Positions 18,926-35,896 of a DNA stretch of 64,000 nucleotides are shown here, in pieces. A program made the position numbers and the translations under genes. The notes under the pieces are model-generated. The model made no database searches. It had not been told where the DNA came from and saw only the letters and a list, made by a program, of their open reading frames with translations. Origin of the DNA: Escherichia phage JLBYU32; sequence record OK272490.1. One strand, given 5' to 3'. Numbering within the stretch: the first letter of the stretch is position 1; each line of letters opens with the position of its first letter.

Positions 18926-18952
18926 AAATAAAAAAGGCTCCCGAAGGAGCCT
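18926..18952 (-). terminator. rho-independent terminator (- strand)
   Basis: GGCTCC-TTCG-GGAGCC hairpin followed by U-tract on - strand, downstream of endolysin. Confidence 0.6.
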
Positions 18953-18961
18953 ATGAAGATA

Positions 18962-19426
18962 TTACTTTGGATATACACTGTCAAGATAAATGTCAGCTTC
19001 CATTCTACGTCTGTTTTTCAGGCCGTTTGAAGTGACCTTCTTACCTTTGACTGTAACCTTGTTCCACCACTGCATAGCTTCTGCACAACCGACCTTATTA
19101 CCAGCATTGTGGCGCTTGATAAATGTAGAATCCTGCATAGCTGTGATACCGATGTTGTATGTTTCACTTACAAGTGCATCGAACTCGTTCTGAGAAGTTG
19201 GAACCTTGATAGCTTTATTCACTGCTGCAACGAACTTCTCAACATCTGCAAGAAGATACTGTTCAGCTTGTTCAGCAGTAATTTTCATACCCATCTTAAC
19301 AGGTTTTCCGTCAATACGGATTGTCCCATACCCGATTGTTGGGATTCCGGCAGAGTCTTCGTAAGCCTCTAACTTCAGACCTTCAAAGAACTTAATAGCC
19401 TCTAAACCTTTTCTTGAGAGTTGCAT
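18962..19426 (-). CDS. endolysin, T4-lysozyme-like (GH24 family)
   Basis: EGLKLEAYEDSAGIPTIGYG resembles T4 lysozyme catalytic N-terminus (E..D..T motif); 154 aa. Confidence 0.75.
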   Translation of the reverse strand: MQLSRKGLEAIKFFEGLKLEAYEDSAGIPTIGYGTIRIDGKPVKMGMKITAEQAEQYLLADVEKFVAAVNKAIKVPTSQNEFDALVSETYNIGITAMQDSTFIKRHNAGNKVGCAEAMQWWNKVTVKGKKVTSNGLKNRRRMEADIYLDSVYPK

Positions 19427-20061
19427 TATGCCTCCCCTGCTGGGTTAACAGTAACTGTTGCTGCATCTGAGGTAACACTTGTTCCACCCTCTCCAGATAC
19501 AACGCAAGTGTATGAACCAGTGTCAGAAGGTACTACTGACTGTTTTGTGTAAGTTGCAGAATTGGCACTAGGGATGTCCTCACCATCCTTTTTCCACTGA
19601 TATCCAGTGGCGTTAGTTGCTAGAATGCTTAGAGTAAGTGTGTCACCCTCATTGACTGTTTGACCTGTTGGTTGCTGAGTAATTGTTGGTGGCTTAATAG
19701 CATCCTTCAACTTAGCATTCAACATTGAGAACGGCTTAACTCTTGCCAACCATTCACAGTAAATTGTGTCAACATCTTTACCATTGATGATTGCATACTG
19801 CAAATCCATGAAGAAATCAGCAGTTCTCATCTGTGCACCAACACTGTAAAGGAGTTCATCACTAAAAGGGACTTTGTAGTCTGGTTTGTAGTCAAACTTC
19901 TTAACCTCTGCAATATCAGCTTCAGGCCAATATGAGCTATAGGTGAGTGGTAAAATAGCCTCTTGATATGTTCTAAAATCATATCTCTTACCAGCTTTTA
20001 CGTTTGCAATGAAGCCCTTCACAAACTCTTTGAAGTCTGGGTAAGTCTTTGCTTTAATCAT
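19426..20061 (-). CDS. hypothetical protein with C-terminal Ig-like domain
   Basis: C-terminal ~85 aa (TITQQPTGQTVNEGDTLTLS...YQWKKDG...DTGSYTCVV) has Ig-like hallmarks; N-domain paralogous to next gene. Confidence 0.5.
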   Translation of the reverse strand: MIKAKTYPDFKEFVKGFIANVKAGKRYDFRTYQEAILPLTYSSYWPEADIAEVKKFDYKPDYKVPFSDELLYSVGAQMRTADFFMDLQYAIINGKDVDTIYCEWLARVKPFSMLNAKLKDAIKPPTITQQPTGQTVNEGDTLTLSILATNATGYQWKKDGEDIPSANSATYTKQSVVPSDTGSYTCVVSGEGGTSVTSDAATVTVNPAGEA

Positions 20062-20429
20062 TTCTTTTTAGCCTCTAAATGTGCGTTTAGTCTAAAATAA
20101 CCTTTGTGATTCGGAGATACATCACCAACGACAATACCTTTAACCTTATAACCTTTACCAATTACATACTGGATATCCATAAGGAATCTTCCAAGGCCAA
20201 CAATATGGAACATTGGGTATAATAGACTCTCAGAGTCTGGAATATTGATTTCAGGTTTGTAGATACGCTGTTCGCTTGTTGGTGTAATATCTTCTTCAGG
20301 CCATTTACTGAGTCTCCATGTCAAAGGTGTTGGGATAACATCATTAAGGCTGTACCTTTCACCATTTTGCACGGAATTGATATAGGATTGTAGGAAGCAA
20401 TAAAAGTCTTTTGCACTCTTAGCCTTCAT
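20058..20429 (-). CDS. hypothetical protein, paralog of N-domain of 19426-20061 product
   Basis: shared motifs (FMDxQY.I..GK, WPExDI) with the adjacent gene. Confidence 0.5.
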   Translation of the reverse strand: MKAKSAKDFYCFLQSYINSVQNGERYSLNDVIPTPLTWRLSKWPEEDITPTSEQRIYKPEINIPDSESLLYPMFHIVGLGRFLMDIQYVIGKGYKVKGIVVGDVSPNHKGYFRLNAHLEAKKK

Positions 20430-20476
20430 TAAATATCCTTATAAATAATTAAAGGGGCATCAGCCCCTATTCACAC

Positions 20477-21067
20477 TTAAGCTTTGGTCTTAAGTAGGTT
20501 CTTAAGTTTTTTAAGATTCATACTCTCATCAAACTTAAAACCAAATCCATTGACATAATCAATGAACTCGGATTTCTTACTAAGTGACAATGCGTAACTC
20601 ATATCAAAGTTCTTACTTGTTTCTGCGTCTGGACTAGAGTTCACATCAAATGAAATTTCTGTAGGCTCTTGCTTACTTTTTCTCATATTATCAATTAACA
20701 AACATGTATAGTTTGCTGGATAGAAGTTTACACTACCATCAACGTAGCTGTACTTATTATTGTGGATAAGGTTGGAAAAGACCTTAAGGAATGTTTCTGA
20801 GTCGTGGCAAACAAGTTTGAATTGGCTGCTCTCTCCAAGCGCAACTAATGAATACGGACTTTCACTATCAAAGTCATAATTTGGATTAGATGCCGTCACT
20901 GTTACACGCATCAAGTTATTAGCAATAGTCTTCTGTTTAAAAGAATTTTGAACATAGTGAAGACCTCTATCACACTGATTGACTAGCTCTTTAAGTAGGT
21001 CATTTGCATATGGTGAATTAATTGATACAGAGCCATCACTATTGTAATTAAAACTTACTGTTAACAT
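20477..21067 (-). CDS. hypothetical protein
   Basis: ORF. Confidence 0.5.
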   Translation of the reverse strand: MLTVSFNYNSDGSVSINSPYANDLLKELVNQCDRGLHYVQNSFKQKTIANNLMRVTVTASNPNYDFDSESPYSLVALGESSQFKLVCHDSETFLKVFSNLIHNNKYSYVDGSVNFYPANYTCLLIDNMRKSKQEPTEISFDVNSSPDAETSKNFDMSYALSLSKKSEFIDYVNGFGFKFDESMNLKKLKNLLKTKA

Positions 21068-22138: not shown

Positions 22139-23554
22139 ATGAGCGAGTTATTTAAACATGCGCACCTTCATGCAGGTCGAACTGAAAATGGTGCTGTAAA
22201 CCATACTTCATCAATGTCTTCTCTGGTAGACTTTTACAAAGCCGCTGGCTCAAGCCGTAGTAATGTAGAAATCTTACCAGACCTGTTCTACAAAGCTTTG
22301 CGTGAGGATGTTGATGTTGCAGTTCGTATTTTGCTTCATATGCGAGATGTACGAGAAGGTATGGGTGAGCGTAAAGCTTTCCGAACTGTTTTACTTCAAG
22401 CGATTGAAGATAAAGTTTTAGAGCCTACGCAGGTTCTTCGCATTATGGGTAAGATTGCAGAACTTGGTCGTTTTGATGACTTCAAAATCTTCGCAGGTAC
22501 TCGTTTTGAGACAGATGCCTTCAAACATTTAGAAGCAGCATTACTAGACCCTGCAACAGCAGGTTTAGCAGCTAAGTGGTTGCCACGAGTAAAACCACGC
22601 CACAAACAGTTTGTAAAACGTTTCTGCAAGTTTGCAAACTTAAGTGAGAAGGAGTATCGCACACTGTTGTCTGCACTGTCTGATACGGTTGAGCAAAAAA
22701 TCTCTGCTAATGAGTTTGGTAAGATTGACTACAGCAAGATTCCTTCACTCGCTGCTGCACGTTACCAAAAACTCTTTAACCGTAAAGATGGGGAACGTTA
22801 CAAAGCTTACATTGAGTCCCTCTCAAAAGGTGAGGCTAAGATTAACGCTGGCGCTGTTTACCCATACGATGTGATTAAATCTATCAAGTATGGTAATGCA
22901 GATGTTGCTAATGAGCAGTGGAAAGCACTACCAAACTGGATGGCAGAAGGTGAAAACATCCTGTGTATGACTGATGTTTCAAGCTCAATGTCTTGGGTGA
23001 ATCTTGGTTCAATCACTGCCCTTGATATTGGTGTATCACTTGCATTGTATGTAGCAGAACGCAATACAGGTTGCTTTAAAAATGAGTTAATGGTGTACTC
23101 AACAGACCCTCATTTCATCGAACTGAGTGGTGATTTACAGACTCGTATGCGTCAAGTAATGAGTCATGTTGAATATGGTTCAACTTACTTACAAGCAGCT
23201 TTTGACCGTATTCTTGAGATAGGTAAAAGAAACAACTTGACTCAGGAAGATATGCCAAGTAAGCTTATCATCTTCTCCGATATGGAGTTCAATCAGGTTG
23301 ATGGTGCTAACGGTCGTACAAACTTTGAAGCAATTCAGAGTAAGTACAAAAAAGCTGGATATGAGATGCCACAACTGGTATTCTGGTACTTAGCAAACCG
23401 TAATGGCACTTGCGAAGTATCTGTTAAGGATAACGGTGTAGCAATGGTATCTGGTTTCTCTCCAGCCACTTTAAAAGCTCTGCTTGGTGGTGAGAAGTTT
23501 GACCCAATCAGCGTAATGCTCAAAGCAGTAATGATTGACCGTTACATTTGGTAA
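22139..23554 (+). CDS. vWA-domain protein with MIDAS-like DxSxS motif (Ro60/TROVE- or DUF2828-like architecture)
   Basis: alpha-helical N-terminal half; CMTDVSSSMS MIDAS-like motif and FSDMEF in C-terminal half; 471 aa. Confidence 0.45.
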   Translation: MSELFKHAHLHAGRTENGAVNHTSSMSSLVDFYKAAGSSRSNVEILPDLFYKALREDVDVAVRILLHMRDVREGMGERKAFRTVLLQAIEDKVLEPTQVLRIMGKIAELGRFDDFKIFAGTRFETDAFKHLEAALLDPATAGLAAKWLPRVKPRHKQFVKRFCKFANLSEKEYRTLLSALSDTVEQKISANEFGKIDYSKIPSLAAARYQKLFNRKDGERYKAYIESLSKGEAKINAGAVYPYDVIKSIKYGNADVANEQWKALPNWMAEGENILCMTDVSSSMSWVNLGSITALDIGVSLALYVAERNTGCFKNELMVYSTDPHFIELSGDLQTRMRQVMSHVEYGSTYLQAAFDRILEIGKRNNLTQEDMPSKLIIFSDMEFNQVDGANGRTNFEAIQSKYKKAGYEMPQLVFWYLANRNGTCEVSVKDNGVAMVSGFSPATLKALLGGEKFDPISVMLKAVMIDRYIW

Positions 23555-23719: not shown

Positions 23720-23796
23720 CTCTGTTTAGCTCAGCTTGGTAGAGCGTTCCGTTTGGGGCGGTAAGGCCGGAGGTTCAAGTCCTCCAACAGAGACCA
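23720..23796 (+). tRNA. tRNA-Pro (anticodon TGG)
   Basis: hand-folded cloverleaf; 7-bp acceptor, T-arm GGAGG-TTCAAGT-CCTCC, CCA encoded. Confidence 0.7.
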
Positions 23797-23803
23797 AATT
23801 AAT

Positions 23804-23881
23804 GTTCCAGTAGACAAAACGGTAAAGTCACCACTCTTTCAAAGTGGATATTTGAGGGCTCAAATCCCTTCTGGAACGCCA
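23804..23881 (+). tRNA. tRNA-Glu (anticodon TTC), atypical T-loop CTCAAAT
   Basis: perfect acceptor and anticodon stems; loop CTTTCAA. Confidence 0.7.
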
Positions 23882-23883
23882 GT

Positions 23884-23963
23884 TTTGACAGAAGACCAAT
23901 TACAGCAAGTTTAATCTTATTCATCTGACACGAAATCGGACAAAGAAGAGATTTGGTCTGGTC
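23884..23963 (+). repeat. tRNA spacer element CAGAAGACC..ACAGCAA ... TTGGTCTGG (copy 1)
   Basis: long-range inverted repeat AGACC/GGTCT; recurs at least 4 times between tRNAs. Confidence 0.6.
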
Positions 23964-23972
23964 ATTAAGAAT

Positions 23973-24049
23973 TGCGGGTATAGAGAAAGGGCGTCTCACA
24001 TGTCTCATTAGCATGGTATCGGCAGGTTCGACTCCTGCACCCGCCTCCA
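23973..24049 (+). tRNA. tRNA-Met (anticodon CAT)
   Basis: anticodon loop CTCATTA; T-arm GCAGG-TTCGACT-CCTGC; 1-72 mismatch. Confidence 0.65.
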
Positions 24050-24050
24050 A

Positions 24051-24117
24051 TTTTGCAGAAGACCGTATGCAGCAATAAACTACTTTTTGCGGATAAAAGA
24101 AAAAACACGGTCTGGCA
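24051..24117 (+). repeat. tRNA spacer element (copy 2)
   Basis: TTTTGCAGAAGACCGTATGCAGCAA ... CACGGTCTGGC. Confidence 0.6.
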
Positions 24118-24126
24118 ATGTATTAA

Positions 24127-24203
24127 GGTTAGGAAGCACATAAGGTATGTGCGGTCGCCTGTTAAGCGAATGGCACAGGGTTCGAATCCCTGACTAACCG
24201 CCA
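24127..24203 (+). tRNA. tRNA-Asn (anticodon GTT)
   Basis: loop CTGTTAA; T-arm CAGGG-TTCGAAT-CCCTG. Confidence 0.75.
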
Positions 24204-24212
24204 AATTTAAAT

Positions 24213-24300
24213 GTGTCGTTATCCCGTAGATGGTAGCGGTGGGGACTGTAAATCCCTTGTCATTGAGACTCGGTAGGTTCGACTCCTACACGGCACACCA
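24213..24300 (+). tRNA. tRNA-Tyr (anticodon GTA), long variable arm
   Basis: 88 nt; loop CTGTAAA; T-arm GTAGG-TTCGACT-CCTAC. Confidence 0.7.
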
Positions 24301-24306
24301 AATAAA

Positions 24307-24384
24307 GGTTATGTAGTTTAATCTGGTTAAAATACTCCCCTGTCACGGGAGATGATGAGGGTTCAAATCCCTTCGTAACCGCCA
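24307..24384 (+). tRNA. tRNA-Asp (anticodon GTC)
   Basis: anticodon stem CTCCC/GGGAG, loop CTGTCAC. Confidence 0.75.
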
Positions 24385-24442
24385 ATTTTGAGAGGGCTAT
24401 TTAGCCCCTCCCTTAAAGAGTTCTTACGAGTATTCTTTAAAG

Positions 24443-24514
24443 GAGCAGAAGACCAAATACAGCAAATACGTATGATATTTTCAAGCCAATTTAATTTTGA
24501 AAAAATTTAAAACT
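24443..24514 (+). repeat. tRNA spacer element (copy 3)
   Basis: GCAGAAGACCAAATACAGCAA ... AACTTGGTCTGGC. Confidence 0.6.
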
Positions 24515-24520
24515 TGGTCT

Positions 24521-24668
24521 GGCTCAACAATTTTACAGAAGACCGTTTACAGCAAAACTTAAACAATCTATTTCTCGGTAAAGAAAAGGAGAAGGTTCGA
24601 TTCCTTCACTCGACAGATGTCGAGTTGGTGTAATGGTAGCACTTAAGATGATAAACAACGGTCTGGTA
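24521..24668 (+). repeat. tRNA spacer element (copy 4) containing a tRNA-like fragment
   Basis: TTTTACAGAAGACCGTTTACAGCAA ... AACGGTCTGG. Confidence 0.6.
24585..24640 (+). pseudogene. tRNA-like fragment: T-arm then acceptor-like hairpin then D-arm-like segment (degenerate or permuted tRNA?)
   Basis: GAAGG-TTCGATT-CCTTC then ACTCGAC-AGAT-GTCGAGT then TGGTGTAATGGTAGCAC; no canonical cloverleaf in normal order. Confidence 0.25.
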
Positions 24669-24817
24669 ATCATCTTTGCAGTAGCTTATGTGGCTAATTA
24701 TGTCGTCCCATGAGTGCCGATGAATTTCCTTAGCATGATTCTAGATTAGCTTAATAGGAAATGACTCTACAGACCCTTTAGCAAGGTCTGCGTAGGTTAC
24801 TGCAAAGATGATTTAAT

Positions 24818-24892
24818 GGAAGTGTAGCAGAATGGTGATGCGGCAGACTTTTAATCTGACAGGCGATGGGTTCGAATCCCTCCACTTCTACC
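24818..24892 (+). tRNA. tRNA-Lys (anticodon TTT)
   Basis: loop CTTTTAA; paralog of tRNA at 26051 (shared T-arm GATGGGTTCRAWTCCCTCC). Confidence 0.65.
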
Positions 24893-24897
24893 AAAAT

Positions 24898-24974
24898 GGT
24901 TCAGTCGCAGATAAGGTAATGCAGGGGTCTCATAAGCCCTATGAATGTGGGTTCGATTCCCATCTGAACCTCCA
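24898..24974 (+). tRNA. tRNA with anticodon CAT (Met, or Ile via lysidine)
   Basis: loop CTCATAA; perfect acceptor GGTTCAG/CTGAACC. Confidence 0.7.
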
Positions 24975-24976
24975 AT

Positions 24977-25051
24977 TGTGGGTTAGCATAAATGGTAATG
25001 CAAACGGCTGATAACCGTTAGAAGAGGGTTCGATACCCTCACCTACAACCA
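24977..25051 (+). tRNA. tRNA-Ile (anticodon GAT)
   Basis: anticodon stem AACGG/CCGTT, loop CTGATAA. Confidence 0.75.
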
Positions 25052-25066
25052 ATTTCAATAAAGTTG

Positions 25067-25095
25067 TTGACATTTAGATGTGACCACTTTATAGT
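25067..25095 (+). promoter_or_regulatory. sigma70-like promoter TTGACA-17-TATAGT inside tRNA cluster
   Basis: consensus boxes; followed by ~200 nt of structured non-tRNA sequence before next tRNA. Confidence 0.6.
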
Positions 25096-25299
25096 AACCT
25101 TAGTTTTCGTTGCGTAGCGTCTATTTTGCAAATTTAAAATAAATGCAAACGACAATGTTTTTCTGGCAGTAGCTTGATAGGCTAAACACCAGTGAGGTCT
25201 TCCAATCCCTCATCAAAGAATTTGGCGTACTAGCCCACGGTATGATTAATAAAGTGGGCATCTTTAAGGGCTTTCTAAGAGAGTCTTTAAAGATAATTA

Positions 25300-25381
25300 C
25301 GGGGCGTATCTCAGCTGTCTTCTAAACAGCCGTTAACCGAGTAAGTGGAGTATGCGGGTTCGAGTCCTGCCGCCTCGACCA
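25300..25381 (+). tRNA. atypical tRNA-like gene (possible anticodon TCT, Arg); fold uncertain
   Basis: good acceptor and T-arm (GCGGG-TTCGAGT-CCTGC) but non-canonical D region; hairpin GCTGT-CTTCTAA-ACAGC. Confidence 0.35.
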
Positions 25382-25524
25382 ATTTAGTTAGCAGATTACT
25401 TAGACGACCTAAGCGGGTCTTCCTGTAGGGAGGTGGTCTGTATCTCATGTTTTCCAGAACATGTAAATAATCTGAGAAGGGGCTTTACAGTGTTGAGATA
25501 ATACGGTAAGCTTCGAATTATAGT

Positions 25525-25606
25525 ATGGGACGATGTTAAGACTCTAAGGCATGAGCAACGGCTTCCAACACCGTTTCAAAGGGGTTCAACTCCTCCGTCC
25601 CATGCC
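25525..25606 (+). tRNA. atypical tRNA, possibly tRNA-Trp (anticodon CCA) with oversized D region
   Basis: perfect 7-bp acceptor ATGGGAC/GTCCCAT, T-loop TTCAACT; candidate anticodon loop TTCCAAC. Confidence 0.4.
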
Positions 25607-25620
25607 AAAGTCTTATTAGG

Positions 25621-25708
25621 GGTAGGTAGCGGCTAATGGTAGCCAAACTGTCTTGAAAACAGTTGCCACTGTAGAGATACGGTGAGGGTTCGACTCCTTT
25701 ACTTACCG
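25621..25708 (+). tRNA. tRNA-Ser (anticodon TGA), long variable arm
   Basis: 88 nt; anticodon stem ACTGT/ACAGT loop CTTGAAA; CCA not encoded. Confidence 0.7.
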
Positions 25709-25855
25709 CCTAATAAGATTTAAAGCCAAGCTTCATTCGGATGTTGCTTTGGTATACCGCGTGTATTGTTGTACACACAGATAAAACACCTAGTAGGTGT
25801 CACGGAGAAGAGATAATATCAAGCTCTCCAAAGGTTCTAGTCACCGGATTAAACA

Positions 25856-25880
25856 AGACTATGCAAAGACCTTTTTAGGT
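25856..25880 (+). terminator. hairpin + T-tract inside tRNA cluster spacer
   Basis: AAGACC-TTTTT-AGGTCTT followed by TTTTAGAG. Confidence 0.4.
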
Positions 25881-25966
25881 CTTTTTAGAGGGCTTCTAAG
25901 GTTATTAGTCGCTTGTTGTGGAACCTTGTTGCTCAGGTTCTTAGAAGTTCTCTAAAAAGATTTAAT

Positions 25967-26043
25967 GCACCTATAGCCCAACTGGTGGAGGCAGCAGACT
26001 TAGAATCTGCTCAGTGTGAGTTCGAATCTCTCTAGGTGTACCA
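25967..26043 (+). tRNA. tRNA with anticodon TAG (Leu by anticodon) but class I (short variable loop) shape
   Basis: anticodon stem GCAGA/TCTGC loop CTTAGAA; 77 nt; discriminator A. Confidence 0.6.
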
Positions 26044-26050
26044 AATTAAT

Positions 26051-26126
26051 GCAGGTGTAGCAAAATGGTTATGCGGCTGACTCTTAATCAGTAAGACGAT
26101 GGGTTCAATTCCCTCCACCTGTACCA
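26051..26126 (+). tRNA. tRNA-Lys (anticodon CTT)
   Basis: loop CTCTTAA; paralog of tRNA-Lys(TTT) at 24818. Confidence 0.65.
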
Positions 26127-26132
26127 AACATT

Positions 26133-26208
26133 GGGGTCATAGTTTATATGGTTAAAATTCGAGTTTTGCAAACTTGGGAACTGAGTTCAATTCTCAGTGA
26201 CTCCACCA
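26133..26208 (+). tRNA. tRNA-Ala (anticodon TGC)
   Basis: G3:U70 wobble pair in acceptor stem; loop TTTGCAA; T-arm CTGAG-TTCAATT-CTCAG. Confidence 0.8.
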
Positions 26209-26214
26209 ATTAGT

Positions 26215-26289
26215 GCATCCATAGTTTAAACGGGAAAATTACAGTCTTCCAAACTGAGGTTGAGGGTTCGATTCCCTCTGGATGCTCCA
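26215..26289 (+). tRNA. tRNA-Gly (anticodon TCC)
   Basis: perfect acceptor GCATCCA/TGGATGC; loop CTTCCAA. Confidence 0.75.
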
Positions 26290-26296
26290 AATTAAT

Positions 26297-26372
26297 GCTC
26301 CTATCGTATAATTGGCTATTACGGTTGCCTTGTAAGCAACTTATCAGGGTTCGAATCCTTGTGGGAGCACCA
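26297..26372 (+). tRNA. tRNA-Thr (anticodon TGT)
   Basis: anticodon stem GTTGC/GCAAC loop CTTGTAA. Confidence 0.8.
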
Positions 26373-26467
26373 ATTCAGAGGTCAAGTGAAAGACCGCTTT
26401 GAGTCAACTGAAGACCGTAACAAATTCCACGGAGTTGAGTTAGCGGCACAACTCCAGACCTCTTTCA

Positions 26468-26543
26468 TACTCGCTTAGTTTATATGGTAAAACATCACCC
26501 TTACAAGATGAAGAAAAAGGTTCAAGTCCTTTAGTGAGTACCA
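26468..26543 (+). tRNA. tRNA-Val (anticodon TAC)
   Basis: T-arm AAAGG-TTCAAGT-CCTTT; loop CTTACAA. Confidence 0.65.
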
Positions 26544-26544
26544 T

Positions 26545-26622
26545 GTTCCAGTATCCCAATTGGCAGAGGATGCAAGCTCAAACCTTGTACTAGTGACGGT
26601 TCGAATCCGTCTTGGAACACCA
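26545..26622 (+). tRNA. tRNA with anticodon CAA (Leu by anticodon), class I shape
   Basis: T-arm GACGG-TTCGAAT-CCGTC; loop CTCAAAC; discriminator A. Confidence 0.6.
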
Positions 26623-26627
26623 ATTTT

Positions 26628-26703
26628 GCAGGATTAGTTCAAATGGAAAGAGCAACAGTCTACGAAGCTGTTAATAGGGGTTCGAATCCCTTATCCTGCG
26701 CCA
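26628..26703 (+). tRNA. tRNA-Arg (anticodon ACG)
   Basis: perfect acceptor GCAGGAT/ATCCTGC; loop CTACGAA. Confidence 0.8.
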
Positions 26704-26722
26704 ATTTAAAGAGGCTATTTAG

Positions 26723-27280
26723 ATGAGATATTTGAAGTATGCTTCATGGATTTTCTTAGCTTTGTTAGAGCCATTTGCAGCAATCTTAGCAGTTATCTTA
26801 GCACCTTTTGTAGTTCCATTCTACAGTGAGAAGAAAGGACACTTACCTTTCGGGTTCAGATGGATGGAGACATATGACAACCCAATTGATGGTGATGAAG
26901 GTCACGTTAAAAGATGGGCTAATATTAGATGGATTGGTAAACTAGGTGTCTACATGCAAAGAGTCGGATGGCTCTGGAGAAACAAAGCTTATAACTTCTC
27001 TTACCATGTATTAGGAAGAGATGTAAAAGATGTTACTAAGTGGAAAGGTAATATCAACGTAAGTTCTGACCCCGAAGATAATCAGACAGGTTATCTCCTA
27101 ATGTGGAACAGTAATGCTTGGGGATTATTCGCTTTTATCCCATCAATTAAAATCTTTGGTAAACAATTTTACTGGAGAATTTATATTGGATGGAAACTAA
27201 AAAGTGTTGTCCCAGAAGAAAGAGCATTCTCAAGGGAAAGAGTTATGTTGGCATTCTTTATTCATCCACTGAGAAAGTAA
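26723..27280 (+). CDS. hypothetical membrane-anchored, Trp-rich protein embedded in tRNA cluster
   Basis: AAAGAGG RBS 8 nt upstream of ATG; N-terminal hydrophobic segment. Confidence 0.55.
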   Translation: MRYLKYASWIFLALLEPFAAILAVILAPFVVPFYSEKKGHLPFGFRWMETYDNPIDGDEGHVKRWANIRWIGKLGVYMQRVGWLWRNKAYNFSYHVLGRDVKDVTKWKGNINVSSDPEDNQTGYLLMWNSNAWGLFAFIPSIKIFGKQFYWRIYIGWKLKSVVPEERAFSRERVMLAFFIHPLRK

Positions 27281-27288
27281 AGATTTAA

Positions 27289-27364
27289 AGGGGATTAGTT
27301 TACAAGGTTAAAACCTCGGTCTTTGAAATCGAAGAAGTTGGTTCAATTCCAACATCCCCCGCCA
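27289..27364 (+). tRNA. tRNA-Gln (anticodon TTG)
   Basis: T-arm GTTGG-TTCAATT-CCAAC; loop CTTTGAA. Confidence 0.7.
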
Positions 27365-27366
27365 AT

Positions 27367-27445
27367 GCTCCATTACTCCAATTGGCAGAGAGGCCAGACT
27401 TAAAATCTGTGTTATGTATCGGTTCGAATCCGATATGGAGTACCA
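27367..27445 (+). tRNA. tRNA with anticodon TAA (Leu by anticodon), class I-like shape
   Basis: T-arm ATCGG-TTCGAAT-CCGAT; loop CTTAAAA; discriminator A. Confidence 0.6.
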
Positions 27446-27450
27446 AATTT

Positions 27451-27526
27451 AGCGGTATAGCATAACTGGCAATGCAGCAGCCTCTGAAGCTGTCCTATTA
27501 AGGTTCAAATCCTTATGCCGCTGCCA
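27451..27526 (+). tRNA. tRNA-Gln (anticodon CTG)
   Basis: T-arm TAAGG-TTCAAAT-CCTTA; loop CTCTGAA. Confidence 0.65.
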
Positions 27527-27557
27527 CTTCTAAGGATTCTTGCGAGAGTCCTTAAAT

Positions 27558-27633
27558 GTGGCCTTATCATAAATGGTAATGACCCATGCTGTGAACATGG
27601 TCTATACGGGTTCAAATCCCGTAGGTCACCCCA
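27558..27633 (+). tRNA. tRNA-His (anticodon GTG)
   Basis: anticodon stem CCATG/CATGG loop CTGTGAA; discriminator C. Confidence 0.75.
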
Positions 27634-27639
27634 ATTTAT

Positions 27640-27715
27640 AGTCCAAGTAGCTTATATGGTTAAAGCGCGTGTCTGAAAAACATGAGAAGAGGGTTCGAAT
27701 CCCACTGGACTACCA
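27640..27715 (+). tRNA. tRNA-Phe (anticodon GAA)
   Basis: loop CTGAAAA; T-loop TTCGAAT; acceptor pairing slightly ambiguous. Confidence 0.65.
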
Positions 27716-27731
27716 ATTTCAAAGGTGCTTA

Positions 27732-28466
27732 ATGAAAGAGATGACAGAACAAGGTAAGGAGATTTTTAATCTCTTAAAAACCGGTAGAGGGTTTTCTAAT
27801 CCCCTTATTACTGGTGCAGCAGTTCTCGGTGGAACCGTAGCTGCCTCTACATCACTTGTAAGTTCTATTAGCTCTGTAACAGACCCTACAATGAAGGAGA
27901 AACTTGTTGCTGCTGGACTTACAACAGTCCTTCTAAACAGCTTTACAACAAGCCTTACAAGCACTACAGCGACTACTAAGACCTTAACAGACTATGGTCA
28001 AAAGTCTATTGATGAGTTTTCATCACGTATGCAGGTAGCAAAGGGGTATTCCAATGTTATGGGTGCAGCAGGGGAACAAGTTGGCTGTACACCGTTTAGT
28101 GGTATTATGGGCGTTGCTACAGAATATGGTCAAAAAGCTATTGACACAATTAACAGTGCACTAGATGACGTTAATGATGTATTAAGTGACTTACAAGATG
28201 CTATTGATAAGGGTCTTGATACTGTTTCTGATTTAGCTAATCAGGCTGTTAGCAAGATTAATGAAGGTATCTCGAAGATTACAGCTTATGCAGATGAAGT
28301 TGTGCAGATGATTGAAGAAGAAGCTGCCCTTATTGCAGAGTACCTTAAAACGAATATCAATGGGTTCTTAGCAGGTATCTTACCAGACTGGTTTGATGAT
28401 GCCTGTAAAACTGGTGTAATTGATACTATTGCAACACCAGAAATGAAGAGCGCATTACAGAAGTAA
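27732..28466 (+). CDS. hypothetical Ser/Thr/Ala-rich protein embedded in tRNA cluster
   Basis: start moved to ATG 27732 (track start 27669 is an alternative start inside tRNA-Phe); ends 1 nt before tRNA-Ser. Confidence 0.5.
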   Translation: MKEMTEQGKEIFNLLKTGRGFSNPLITGAAVLGGTVAASTSLVSSISSVTDPTMKEKLVAAGLTTVLLNSFTTSLTSTTATTKTLTDYGQKSIDEFSSRMQVAKGYSNVMGAAGEQVGCTPFSGIMGVATEYGQKAIDTINSALDDVNDVLSDLQDAIDKGLDTVSDLANQAVSKINEGISKITAYADEVVQMIEEEAALIAEYLKTNINGFLAGILPDWFDDACKTGVIDTIATPEMKSALQK

Positions 28467-28467
28467 T

Positions 28468-28560
28468 GGAAGATTAACCCTAAAAGGTAAGGGAGCAGTT
28501 TGCTAAACTGCCAGTAGCTGAGAAATCGGTGTACCAGTTCAAGTCTGGTATCTTCCTCCA
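28468..28560 (+). tRNA. tRNA-Ser (anticodon GCT), long variable arm
   Basis: 93 nt; perfect acceptor GGAAGAT/ATCTTCC; anticodon stem GCAGT/ACTGC loop TTGCTAA. Confidence 0.75.
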
Positions 28561-28564
28561 ATTT

Positions 28565-28640
28565 GAATCCGTGACAGAAATGGCTATGTGCCTGTCTGCA
28601 AAACAGGTTTATAAGGGTTCGAGTCCCTTCGGATTCTCCA
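28565..28640 (+). tRNA. tRNA-Cys (anticodon GCA)
   Basis: perfect acceptor GAATCCG/CGGATTC; anticodon stem CCTGT/ACAGG loop CTGCAAA. Confidence 0.8.
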
Positions 28641-34783: not shown

Positions 34784-35896
34784 ATGTTGACTAATTCTGA
34801 AAAAAGCAGATTTTTCCTTGCTGACCTGACTGGTGAAGTCCAGTCTATCCCAAATACTTATGGGTATATTTCCAACTTAGGTCTGTTCCGTTCAGCACCA
34901 ATCACCCAAACTACTTTCCTTATGGACTTGACTGATTGGGATGTTAGCTTGCTTGATGCGGTAGACCGTGATAGCCGTAAAGCAGAGACTAGCGCACCTG
35001 AGCGTGTTCGTCAAATCAGCTTCCCAATGATGTACTTCAAAGAAGTTGAAAGCATTACTCCTGATGAGATTCAGGGTGTACGTCAGCCAGGCACTGCAAA
35101 CGAACTGACCACTGAAGCTGTGGTACGTGCTAAGAAGCTGATGAAGATTCGTACCAAGTTCGATATTACTCGTGAGTTCTTGTTTATGCAAGCTCTGAAG
35201 GGTAAAGTTGTTGATGCTCGTGGTACTCTGTACGCTGACCTGTACAAGCAGTTCGACGTTGAGAAGAAGACTATTCACTTCGACCTTGACAATCCTAATG
35301 CTGACATTGACGCTGCTATTGAAGAACTGCGTATGCACATGGAAGACGAAGCTAAGACTGGCACTGTAATCAACGGTGAAGAAATTCACGTAGTCGTTGA
35401 CCGTGTATTCTTCAGCAAACTGGTTAAGCATCCTAAGATTCGTGACGCTTATCTTGCACAGCAGACTCCACTGGCTTGGCAGCAGATTACTGGTTCTCTG
35501 AGAACTGGTGGTACTGACGGCGTTCAGGCTCATATGAACACCTTCTACTACGGTGGTGTTAAATTTGTCCAGTACAACGGTAAGTTCAAAGACAAGCGCG
35601 GTAAGGTTCACACTCTGGTTAGCATTGATGGTGTTACTCAGGATGGAACTGTAGGTGTAGGCCACGCTTTCCCTAACGTTTCTATGCTGGGTGAAGCAAA
35701 CAACATCTTCGAAGTGGCATATGGTCCATGTCCTAAGATGGGTTACGCAAATACTCTGGGTCAGGAACTGTACGTATTCGAATACGAAAAAGACCGTGAC
35801 GAAGGTATTGACTTCGAAGCTCACTCTTACATGCTGCCATACTGCACTCGTCCTCAGTTGCTGGTAGATGTCCGTTCTGATGCTAAAGGCGAATAA
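34784..35896 (+). CDS. major capsid protein (by synteny and size)
   Basis: 370 aa after protease-scaffold gene; strong codon bias. Confidence 0.65.
   Translation: MLTNSEKSRFFLADLTGEVQSIPNTYGYISNLGLFRSAPITQTTFLMDLTDWDVSLLDAVDRDSRKAETSAPERVRQISFPMMYFKEVESITPDEIQGVRQPGTANELTTEAVVRAKKLMKIRTKFDITREFLFMQALKGKVVDARGTLYADLYKQFDVEKKTIHFDLDNPNADIDAAIEELRMHMEDEAKTGTVINGEEIHVVVDRVFFSKLVKHPKIRDAYLAQQTPLAWQQITGSLRTGGTDGVQAHMNTFYYGGVKFVQYNGKFKDKRGKVHTLVSIDGVTQDGTVGVGHAFPNVSMLGEANNIFEVAYGPCPKMGYANTLGQELYVFEYEKDRDEGIDFEAHSYMLPYCTRPQLLVDVRSDAKGE

Follow-up and report, generated by a model that had tools for sequence, protein, structure and literature searches.

A predicted Hoc-like hexamer decoration protein with a single Ig-like domain, and its Ig-less tandem paralog, in Escherichia phage JLBYU32

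The closest described systems to the locus considered here are the hexamer decoration protein (Hex-Dec) of phage Bas63 (bas63_0124; PDB 9ncf, chain S) and gp20 of phage Sf14 (9c2d and 9c3a, chain S). Both are monomeric, Hoc-like proteins in which a capsid-binding domain (CapBD) at the N-terminus plugs the centre of the pentamer-proximal hexamers of a T=9 head (PMC12609058; PMC11821841). Cryo-EM places Hex-Dec on the facet-edge hexamers, with its string of Ig domains projecting outward, and the number of these domains ranges from one to four among relatives (PMC12609058). In Sf14, Arg79 and Arg107 of gp20 form salt bridges with Asp221 of the major capsid protein (MCP); gp20 was detected in virions by MS (PMC11821841). 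The Hex-Dec and gp20 genes are located over 10 kb away from the structural module and have been mislabelled 'tail protein' (PMC12609058; PMC11821841). In the related phage Felix O1, RT-PCR showed that ORF36 and ORF37 reach their maximum late, at 60 min, together with the genes for the portal and tail fibre, whereas the lysin gene peaks at 25 min; MS of virions identified gp36 from 14 peptides (44% coverage; PMC3185647).

T4 Hoc is alike in being a non-essential monomer at hexamer centres that joins a small capsid-binding domain to an outward string of Ig domains, and it has been proposed to act in adhesion or in the sensing of aggregation (PMC12609058; PMC10385173). The order of the parts differs, since the Ig domains of Hoc are N-terminal and its capsid-binding domain C-terminal, whereas in Hex-Dec this arrangement is reversed. 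Hoc is found at hexamer centres across the T4 head, and Hex-Dec on the pentamer-proximal hexamers only. The Bas63 authors further describe the CapBD of Hex-Dec as topologically distinct from that of Hoc, larger, and composed of pseudo-C2 lobes (PMC12609058).

The DNA analysed here, a window of 64,000 nucleotides from Escherichia phage JLBYU32 (OK272490.1), belongs to a Felixounavirus, that is, a Felix O1-like myophage; 250 Ounavirinae records were matched, and the locus is 97% identical to that of Escherichia phage momo. It is very likely that this Felixounavirus encodes a Hoc-like Hex-Dec of 211 aa, left with one Ig domain by a deletion, and next to it a 123-aa tandem duplicate of the CapBD alone. 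With the endolysin gene, the two form a small terminator-bounded unit on the minus strand, which lies about 9 kb upstream of the structural genes. The 123-aa gene (20058–20429; phrog_4463), recognised as an Ig-less paralog of the Hex-Dec CapBD by BLASTP, PHROG and PDB matches, comes first, followed by the 211-aa open reading frame (19426–20061) and, as the third gene, the endolysin (18962–19426). The last was correctly called a lysozyme in a preliminary description of this sequence, being of the T4 type (PF00959; Phage_lysozyme, E 6.6e-41). Both junctions, between the 123-aa and 211-aa genes and between the 211-aa gene and the endolysin, are ATGA/TAATG start-stop overlaps. A scan located terminator-like hairpins at either end, also on the minus strand: AGGGGCTGATGCCCCT with a T-rich tail (20453–20468) directly upstream of the 123-aa gene, and AGGCTCCTTCGGGAGCCT plus TTTTTTATTTT (18935–18952) downstream of the endolysin. 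The upstream hairpin has the sequence given for Felix O1 terminator t38, and the downstream one, which also agrees with the annotation of KhF3, corresponds to t35 (PMC3185647, Table 2). The t38-like hairpin is kept in momo, KhF3, Felix O1, SP3 and Sf13.

The order of the three genes is the same in Bas63 (bas63_0123 to bas63_0125), Felix O1 (ORF35 to ORF37), Sf13 (gp23 to gp25), momo and KhF3. The 211-aa gene has its direct ortholog in Felix O1 gp36 ('tail protein', NP_944848.1) and the 123-aa gene in gp37 (ORF37, NP_944851.1), and there too the terminators t38 and t35 flank the genes. Further orthologs of the 123-aa gene are bas63_0125 and SUSP1 agp126, and those of the endolysin are Felix O1 gp35 and bas63_0123. 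The unit is separated by about 15 kb, including a tRNA cluster, from the MCP gene (34784–35896, plus strand; 9ncf_A, E 4.5e-244; 9c2d_A, E 5.2e-234), and the structural genes begin near 29 kb in the window. A position beside the lysozyme had at first been thought unexpected for an Ig-bearing protein, but such genes were already published as encoded away from the structural module (PMC12609058; PMC11821841). Scanning for a sigma-70-like promoter directly upstream of the unit found none, and a candidate late-promoter motif, CTATTTATAAGG, downstream of the upstream hairpin was rejected, as its 11 matches in the window against 8.1 expected amount to no enrichment. A programmed -1 frameshift that would join the paralog to Hex-Dec, which lies in the -1 frame (A AAA AAG, 6 nt before the stop), was likewise rejected, because the motif varies (GCTGAAAAGAAATGA in KhF3, GCTAAGAAATGA in Sf13) and a conserved GAGG Shine-Dalgarno sequence lies 11–14 nt upstream of the Hex-Dec ATG.

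The 211-aa protein can be compared directly with the two solved structures. In phmmer searches it matched 9ncf_S (Bas63 Hex-Dec) with E 5.6e-214 and 9c2d_S (Sf14 gp20) with E 4.4e-146, aligned over residues 1–207, and Foldseek aligned its AF2 model with the modelled CapBD chains of both with a probability of 1.0 and a TMt of 0.80. The CapBD (aa 1–122; 19696–20061, minus strand) is 96% identical to that of Bas63 and 88% identical to that of Sf14. The same paralog, Hex-Dec and endolysin locus, the I-set type of Ig domain and a PAGEA-like tail are shared with both phages, as are Arg79 and Arg107, which are present in the 211-aa protein, and Asp221, which is found at residue 221 of the MCP ortholog. 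By orthology to solved structures, the 211-aa protein is thus identified as a predicted Hex-Dec, a protein already known from the literature, and its place on the capsid, late expression and presence in virions would carry over from orthologs that are 88–96% identical in the CapBD. The suggestion in the preliminary description that the Ig domain points to a role on the virion surface is borne out by these orthologs, which are capsid decoration proteins; an Ig fold is indeed predicted, and orthologs are present in virions. In the proposed arrangement, one Hex-Dec monomer would insert its CapBD of about 120 aa at every pentamer-proximal (quasi-3-fold) hexamer of a T=9 capsid, into the acidic centre, where Arg79 and Arg107 would anchor it to MCP Asp221, and the acidic Ig domain would project outward as a short flexible fibre. 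By analogy with what has been proposed for T4 Hoc, this fibre would probably adhere weakly to surfaces or to mucus, or modulate the aggregation of particles.

More distant relatives share parts of this design. Erwinia phage phiEa21-4 gp38 and Hafnia phage SarahDanielle gp85 have the same synteny (an ORF38 homolog, a CapBD-Ig gene and the endolysin) and a CapBD of 30–38% identity, but their Ig modules are of the Big_2 type rather than I-set, and they have no Ig-less paralog. The Arg79 anchor is not universal, because the Hafnia phage Hex-Dec lacks an Arg at that position. T5 pb10 (5lxk, 8zvi) has the same architecture as the one-Ig allele and is matched in the Ig domain (E 8.8e-12 and 2.6e-12), but only over aa 124–208, and the CapBD shows no detectable similarity. 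Matches of the 211-aa protein to Hoc-like PHROGs (phrog_4069, phrog_2973, phrog_1149 and phrog_3945) likewise cover only aa 96–209, the Ig part, and on its sequence the protein is placed outside the T4 Hoc family. A search of 1.84 billion protein representatives with a CapBD profile gave 12 matches, all of them Ounavirinae-like in architecture, and therefore the function of the domain has no clues from outside this group.

The 123-aa gene is the less familiar member of the pair. Its identification as a paralog of Hex-Dec in the preliminary description is supported by BLASTP (37% identity over 101 aa, E 2e-15) and by reciprocal PHROG matches, phrog_4463 recognising the 211-aa protein (5.8e-17) and phrog_3995 the 123-aa protein (3.8e-14). 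Of the two motifs on which that identification had relied, WPExDI is exact in both proteins, whereas the long copy has FMDxQYxIxxGK exactly and the short one only approximately (FLMDIQYVIGKGY). The only PDB matches of the 123-aa protein in phmmer were 9ncf_S (E 5.5e-11, aa 2–117) and 9c2d_S (E 1.7e-10). The same two chains were its only significant Foldseek matches (TM 0.60–0.61); the AF2 model behind them is poor and was used for the PDB fold match only, because of its pLDDT of 62. The protein ends after the CapBD (LEAKKK) with no Ig-like domain, all orthologs are 122–124 aa long, and a Pfam search of its sequence gave no matches. It is basic (pI 9.1), and its gene has its own upstream AAGGA Shine-Dalgarno-like motif. 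In all paralog orthologs, the positions aligned with Arg79 and Arg107 are occupied by Gly, within an invariant HIVGLG, and by Asn, Gln or His, and the segment that corresponds to the capsid contact carries a different, equally conserved motif, PMFHIVGLG. The same division is seen in a divergent lineage, where the Hex-Dec P0099 keeps both Arg residues and the partner-type P0098 is without them.

The paralog is present in Felixounavirus, Mooglevirus and Suspvirus but is missing from the Ounavirinae of Erwinia and Hafnia, where just one CapBD-Ig gene occupies this locus; the duplication therefore post-dates the split from these lineages, or the paralog was lost there. The gene would have arisen by tandem duplication of only the capsid-binding domain. 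With a dN/dS of 0.14–0.17 (dS reaching 1.1), about four times the value for the Hex-Dec CapBD, it is clearly under purifying selection. Three phages that have kept Hex-Dec, namely fKMPT1, CECAV_041 and Z31, carry it as a pseudogene. In a knock-down screen of SUSP1 both agp125 and agp126 were scored 'Not Fit' (PMC11879866, supplements), so the paralog (agp126) is dispensable in that setting. The presence of this Ig-less paralog alongside Hex-Dec is new relative to both cryo-EM papers, neither of which mentions it in text or models (PMC12609058; PMC11821841). A literature search for virion proteomics that names the paralog found none: the Sf14 supplement has no MS table, and the wV8 paper concerns the tail fibre only. 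STGO-35-1 was rejected as a source, being an unrelated siphophage, and the phages covered by the HIDEN-SEQ and transposon preprints include no Ounavirinae.

As to what the paralog does, we tentatively favour, as one possibility among several, an accessory late protein that may transiently recognise the capsid protein or prohead and not be retained in mature virions. Fairly unlikely, by comparison, is a second, Ig-less decoration protein of hexamer centres, which would either occupy the true 3-fold hexamers, left empty by Hex-Dec, or share the Hex-Dec sites and thereby adjust how densely the Ig fibres are set. Its CapBD homology spans both lobes, its Felix O1 ortholog is co-expressed late with that of Hex-Dec, its stop codon overlaps the Hex-Dec start, Bas63 and Sf14 leave 20 of their 80 hexamers empty, and its pI can be set beside the Asp-lined, acidic capsomer centre of Sf14 (PMC11821841). 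However, both cryo-EM papers report the 3-fold hexamers to be free of density, although icosahedral averaging would blur a monomer there, and gp37 is absent from the Felix O1 virion list, compiled at a stringent cut-off of at least 25% coverage, though proteins of 9.7–13.7 kDa were detected (PMC3185647). For VpaE1, the only additional virion proteins named are gp54, gp58 and gp68, from which the absence of the paralog would follow. The replacement of both anchoring Arg residues, and the loss of the gene from three phages that retain Hex-Dec, also speak against a second decoration protein. A natural chimera in SP3_SHan-2021, in which aa 1–47 of the paralog are fused to Hex-Dec, might seem to favour it, but it occurs in a single record whose relatives of 99% identity have both genes, and could reflect a recent deletion or an artefact of assembly; it was not relied on as proof that the lobes are interchangeable.

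Two further readings of the paralog have less in their favour than the transient, accessory role. It is unlikely that the protein is a capsid-protein binder that regulates decoration, for example by transiently capping prohead or true 3-fold hexamer centres and so setting the place or density of Hex-Dec. To our knowledge, no phage decoration system has been described in which a Hoc-like protein has such a 'site-licensing' partner. More improbable again is a functionless, decaying remnant of the duplication: dispensability, pseudogenes in three phages, the 'Not Fit' score and the four-fold higher dN/dS all fit decay, but purifying selection is clear, the length of 122–124 aa is intact in three genera and in the further divergent lineage (P0098), the paralog-specific motifs are invariant, and the gene has kept its own Shine-Dalgarno-like motif and, in Felix O1, late expression. 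If it still binds capsid protein, this conserved, dispensable and Ig-less paralog would offer a straightforward way into the question of how decoration proteins select among quasi-equivalent hexamers.

The 211-aa protein itself has carried other labels. It is named a tail protein in most GenBank records and in the label of phrog_3995, and 'major tail protein' in the Felix O1 paper; annotations as 'tail protein' or 'putative tail protein' are widespread, and it matches the major-tail-protein families phrog_853, phrog_158 and phrog_3575. These matches are confined to aa 96–210, a promiscuous Ig module, and no tail-protein structure appeared among the Foldseek matches to the CapBD. Orthologs have been built into hexamer-centre density of the capsid in two independent cryo-EM structures (PMC12609058; PMC11821841), and the Bas63 authors explicitly call the tail label a mis-annotation (PMC12609058), which makes a tail protein highly improbable. 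Equally improbable is an early, non-virion pair of proteins acting in the cell or envelope with the lysozyme, as lysis or envelope accessories for instance: the pair sits in a minus-strand block otherwise made up of small genes of unknown function, next to the endolysin, with a start-stop overlap, and a long way from the genes for head and tail, but the 'early-block' assignment of the preliminary description is contradicted by the 60-min peak of Felix O1 ORF36 and ORF37 against 25 min for lysin (PMC3185647), gp36 and gp20 are in virions by MS, cryo-EM puts the protein on the capsid, and a direct reading of the 123-aa and 211-aa sequences reveals no signal peptide or TM segment. The annotation of the 211-aa locus should accordingly read 'Hoc-like hexamer decoration protein (Hex-Dec)', and neither 'tail protein' nor early gene.

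The Hex-Dec of JLBYU32 is distinguished from those of its nearest relatives by its single Ig domain. This I-set/C2-type domain (aa 124–208; 19438–19692, minus strand), which is followed by the PAGEA tail, is found in the 211-aa copy only, as had first been noticed from the sequence, and is recognised by Pfam as Ig_3 (E 7.8e-12, aa 124–189), Ig_2 (2.2e-8) and I-set (7.4e-7). AF2 models it as an Ig beta-sandwich with pLDDT 92–98, and Foldseek aligns it with the MALT1 Ig domain 3bfo and Robo1 Ig5 (TM 0.89, rmsd 1.6 Å). By comparison, there are four Ig domains in Bas63, three in Sf14, and two in Felix O1 gp36, which has 294 aa. Among 46 sampled full-length loci, one Ig was present in 5, two in 22, three in 17 and four in 2, so that the one-Ig class is a minority. 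At 19444–19464 (minus strand), the repeat-end sequence GCAGCAACAGTTACTGTTAAC joins Ig1 directly to the C-terminal tail, and forms the in-register deletion junction, defined relative to the alleles with two, three and four Ig domains by DNA alignment with momo and Felix O1 (two Ig each) and KhF3 (three). The single Ig of this allele would be explained by unequal in-register recombination between Ig-coding repeats of about 249 bp, which removed the other Ig units. Since the nearest relatives, at 97% identity, have two Ig domains, the deletion was probably recent and independent; the one-Ig allele formed by in-register deletion is new here. Tandem Repeats Finder reported no repeats in a three-Ig allele, whose Ig units have diverged too far in DNA sequence, and the repeat structure was seen by alignment instead. 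In the same DNA alignments, the second Ig of Felix O1 gp36 is a hybrid of the Ig2 and Ig3 units of KhF3, which shows that its crossover point was a different one. As copy number varies from one to four among nearly identical phages through such recombination, these phages would form a natural allelic series for the function of the head fibre, for which a host-dependent effect on fitness is already seen in Bas63, where knock-out of g124 was more deleterious on E. coli S17-1 (PMC11482910).

The Ig-bearing protein of the pair is an already known, structurally solved capsid decoration protein, Hex-Dec. Its gene (19426..20061, -; 211 aa) is the middle one of three minus-strand ORFs arranged head to tail, preceded by that of an Ig-less paralog (20058..20429, -; 123 aa) and followed by that of an endolysin, a T4-type lysozyme of 154 aa (18962..19426, -; PF00959, E 6.6e-41). 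The ORFs of the paralogs overlap at ATGA and those of Hex-Dec and the endolysin at TAATG. A hairpin scan found terminator-like hairpins at either end of the unit (20468..20453, - and 18952..18935, -), with the sequences of the Felix O1 terminators t38 and t35, which flank ORF35 (lysin), ORF36 ('tail protein', 294 aa) and ORF37 (123 aa), the orthologs of the three genes (PMC3185647). The locus is 97% identical to that of Escherichia phage momo and is matched by 250 records of Felix O1-like phages; judged by sequence, the phage is a Felixounavirus.

The preliminary description had reported adjoining genes with common N-terminal motifs beside a lysozyme, only the longer copy carrying a C-terminal Ig-like segment, and this observation was confirmed in full by the paralog alignment, the Pfam matches and the predicted fold. 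The 123-aa and 211-aa proteins are 37% identical over 101 residues (E 2e-15) and reciprocally match each other's PHROG families (5.8e-17 and 3.8e-14). The quoted motifs are present: WPEADI/WPEEDI fits the quoted WPExDI exactly in both paralogs, and in the other N-terminal motif FMDLQYAIINGK is set against LMDIQYVIGKGY. Residues 124-208 of the longer protein form the Ig domain (Pfam Ig_3 7.8e-12, Ig_2 2.2e-8, I-set 7.4e-7); its AF2 model has a pLDDT of 92-98 in this segment and superposes on the Ig domains of MALT1 and Robo with a TM of 0.89 and an rmsd of 1.6 A.

In a PDB sequence search, the 211-aa protein matched chain S of the Bas63 (JohannRWettstein) capsid reconstruction (9ncf, E 5.6e-214) and of the Shigella phage Sf14 capsid (9c2d/9c3a, E 4.4e-146), and its predicted N-terminal domain agrees with the modelled parts of these chains (TM 0.80). 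The Bas63 genes follow in the same order (bas63_0123, endolysin; bas63_0124, Ig-like protein; bas63_0125, 123 aa), so this is the same locus. Hex-Dec, or gp20 in Sf14, is a Hoc-like monomeric decoration protein whose capsid-binding domain (CapBD), N-terminal and of ~118-120 residues in two pseudo-C2 lobes, sits in the middle of those hexamers of the T=9 head that are pentamer-proximal and line the facet edges, leaving the true 3-fold hexamers unused, while its C-terminal Ig string is flexible and gives no resolved density (PMC12609058, PMC11821841). In Sf14, Arg79 and Arg107 anchor gp20 to Asp221 of three major capsid protein subunits (PMC11821841). Both arginines are kept in the 211-aa protein, as is D221 in the major capsid protein encoded at 34784..35896 (ortholog of 9ncf_A, E 4.5e-244). 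Most genomes wrongly label Hex-Dec a 'tail protein' (PMC12609058). Matches of the 211-aa protein to the 'major tail protein' and 'Hoc-like' PHROG families are confined to the Ig segment, which is why the tail and Hoc labels mislead. In the AF2 model of the CapBD (19696..20061, -), confidence falls to ~63 at residues 31-50 and ~72 at 61-70. According to the Sf14 authors, the AlphaFold CapBD does not fit the capsid-bound density (PMC11821841), which suggests that the domain folds upon binding.

The expectation that an Ig domain marks a virion-surface protein was borne out, since 14 peptides covering 44% of gp36 were detected in purified Felix O1 virions (Whichard et al., PMC3185647) and its orthologs lie on the Bas63 and Sf14 capsids. 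The assignment of the pair to an early block is not supported: by RT-PCR, Felix O1 ORFs 36 and 37 were maximal late (60 min), along with portal and tail-fibre genes, and ORF35 at 25 min (PMC3185647). Nor is the position beside the lysozyme a new puzzle, as the Bas63 account already places the gene >10 kb outside the structural module (PMC12609058). A shared late-promoter motif showed no enrichment. Knock-out of Bas63 g124 in a PhageMaP library was tolerated on three K-12 strains and mattered more on E. coli S17-1 (PMC11482910), and a CRISPRi-ART screen of SUSP1 classed both agp125, orthologous to Hex-Dec, and agp126, the counterpart of the paralog, as 'Not Fit' (PMC11879866 supplements). Both screens are consistent with a Hoc-like accessory role and do not identify a ligand of the Ig fibre.

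The one-Ig allele belongs to an already described polymorphism of one to four Ig domains per felixounavirus Hex-Dec (PMC12609058), with two in momo (294 aa), three in KhF3 (377 aa) and four in Bas63 (460 aa). Among 46 full-length loci, an evenly spaced sample, locus spans indicated one Ig domain in 5, two in 22, three in 17 and four in 2 (Bas63 and vB_EcoM_Shy). In a DNA alignment, the PAGEA tail at the C-terminus follows straight on the end of Ig1, and the junction falls inside GCAGCAACAGTTACxGTTAA, the sequence that closes every Ig unit; momo and Felix O1 owe their second Ig domains to different crossover points. Together these bear the signature of unequal, in-register recombination between ~249-bp Ig repeats. 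Since its nearest relatives carry two Ig domains and other one-Ig alleles are merely 89-92% identical, this allele probably arose independently. Four Ig domains had been ascribed to Bas63 alone, in an analysis limited to 18 ICTV species (PMC12609058); in vB_EcoM_Shy the locus spans 2351 bp (MT833282.1, 21470..23820; Bas63, 2348 bp), which implies a Hex-Dec with four Ig domains there too. The intact 377-aa three-Ig ORF of KhF3 (KT184315, L002 2027..3160) has no annotation in its GenBank record.

The Ig-less paralog, which the Bas63 and Sf14 capsid papers do not mention (PMC12609058, PMC11821841), is the sole part not covered by the literature consulted, and a modest lead. Its orthologs are 122-124 aa throughout Felixounavirus, Mooglevirus and Suspvirus, a more divergent lineage holds both the Ig-less form (P0098) and the Hex-Dec form (P0099), and its dN/dS against Sf13 is 0.17 (Hex-Dec CapBD, 0.04; lysin, 0.08); on these comparative grounds the gene is genuine and conserved. 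At the equivalent locus, Erwinia phage phiEa21-4 and Hafnia phage SarahDanielle each carry just one CapBD-Ig gene and lack the paralog; either the duplication therefore arose after the subfamily did, or these lineages lost the copy. Only 12 relatives of the CapBD family came up when 1.84 billion representative proteins were searched with a profile, so no clue to the paralog's function comes from outside. In fKMPT1 (L009 1305..1498), vB_CECAV_041 (L010 1312..1498) and Z31 (L004 1605..1798) the paralog is a pseudogene lacking its start codon, with frameshifts and a common ~215-bp internal deletion, which speaks for the gene being dispensable; Hex-Dec remains whole in fKMPT1 and vB_CECAV_041 and is split into two ORFs in Z31.

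Residues common to both families (F9, F12, Y26, P35-L36, WPExDI, LLY, F.MD.QY, K109, LNA.L) look like core or fold residues. Where Hex-Dec has the anchoring R79, the paralog has Gly, as part of an invariant PMFHIVGLG segment, and it has N/Q/H in place of R107; it is also basic (pI 9.1, versus 7.7 for the Hex-Dec CapBD). We read it as an accessory late protein, neofunctionalised or subfunctionalised, in which the fold was kept and the capsid-contact segment changed. More specifically, it may still touch the capsid protein transiently, an idea held with low confidence. A role as a true second decoration protein we consider quite improbable: gp37 is missing from the Felix O1 virion MS list, in which four proteins of 9.7-13.7 kDa were detected (PMC3185647), and cryo-EM of Bas63 and Sf14 showed nothing on the 3-fold hexamers (PMC12609058, PMC11821841). 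The VpaE1 study extended that list by gp54, gp58 and gp68 only, which would leave the paralog out there too. A -1 frameshift fusing the paralog to Hex-Dec was dropped, the slippery-looking A AAA AAG not being conserved. Salmonella phage SP3_SHan-2021 (MW296865, L003 1801..2679) has no separate paralog gene and a single 292-aa chimera, in which paralog residues 1-47 are joined at WPEEDI to Hex-Dec from residue 50 onward with two Ig domains. This could be genuine recombination or assembly collapse, and was set aside as an anecdote because it is a singleton whose 99.2%-identical relatives Shy, SME50, ZX4221 and KEP2 keep both genes.

By locus comparison, the endolysin is the ortholog of Bas63 g123 (bas63_0123), which is reported, with validation, to trigger the Ec67 retron defence system and whose loss became advantageous under several defence systems (PhageMaP preprint, PMC11482910). 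A 196-aa ORF38 homolog (20477..21067, -; phrog_4034) lies directly upstream of the decoration-protein gene at all Ounavirinae loci examined, even in the paralog-less Erwinia and Hafnia phages. The plus-strand block opens with a 471-aa protein (22139..23554, +), annotated in relatives as vWFA / DUF2828 (pfam11443), just upstream of the tRNA genes. A tRNA cluster is typical of Felix O1-like phages, and here 25 tRNA genes at 23720..28640 (+) separate the minus-strand block from the structural module.
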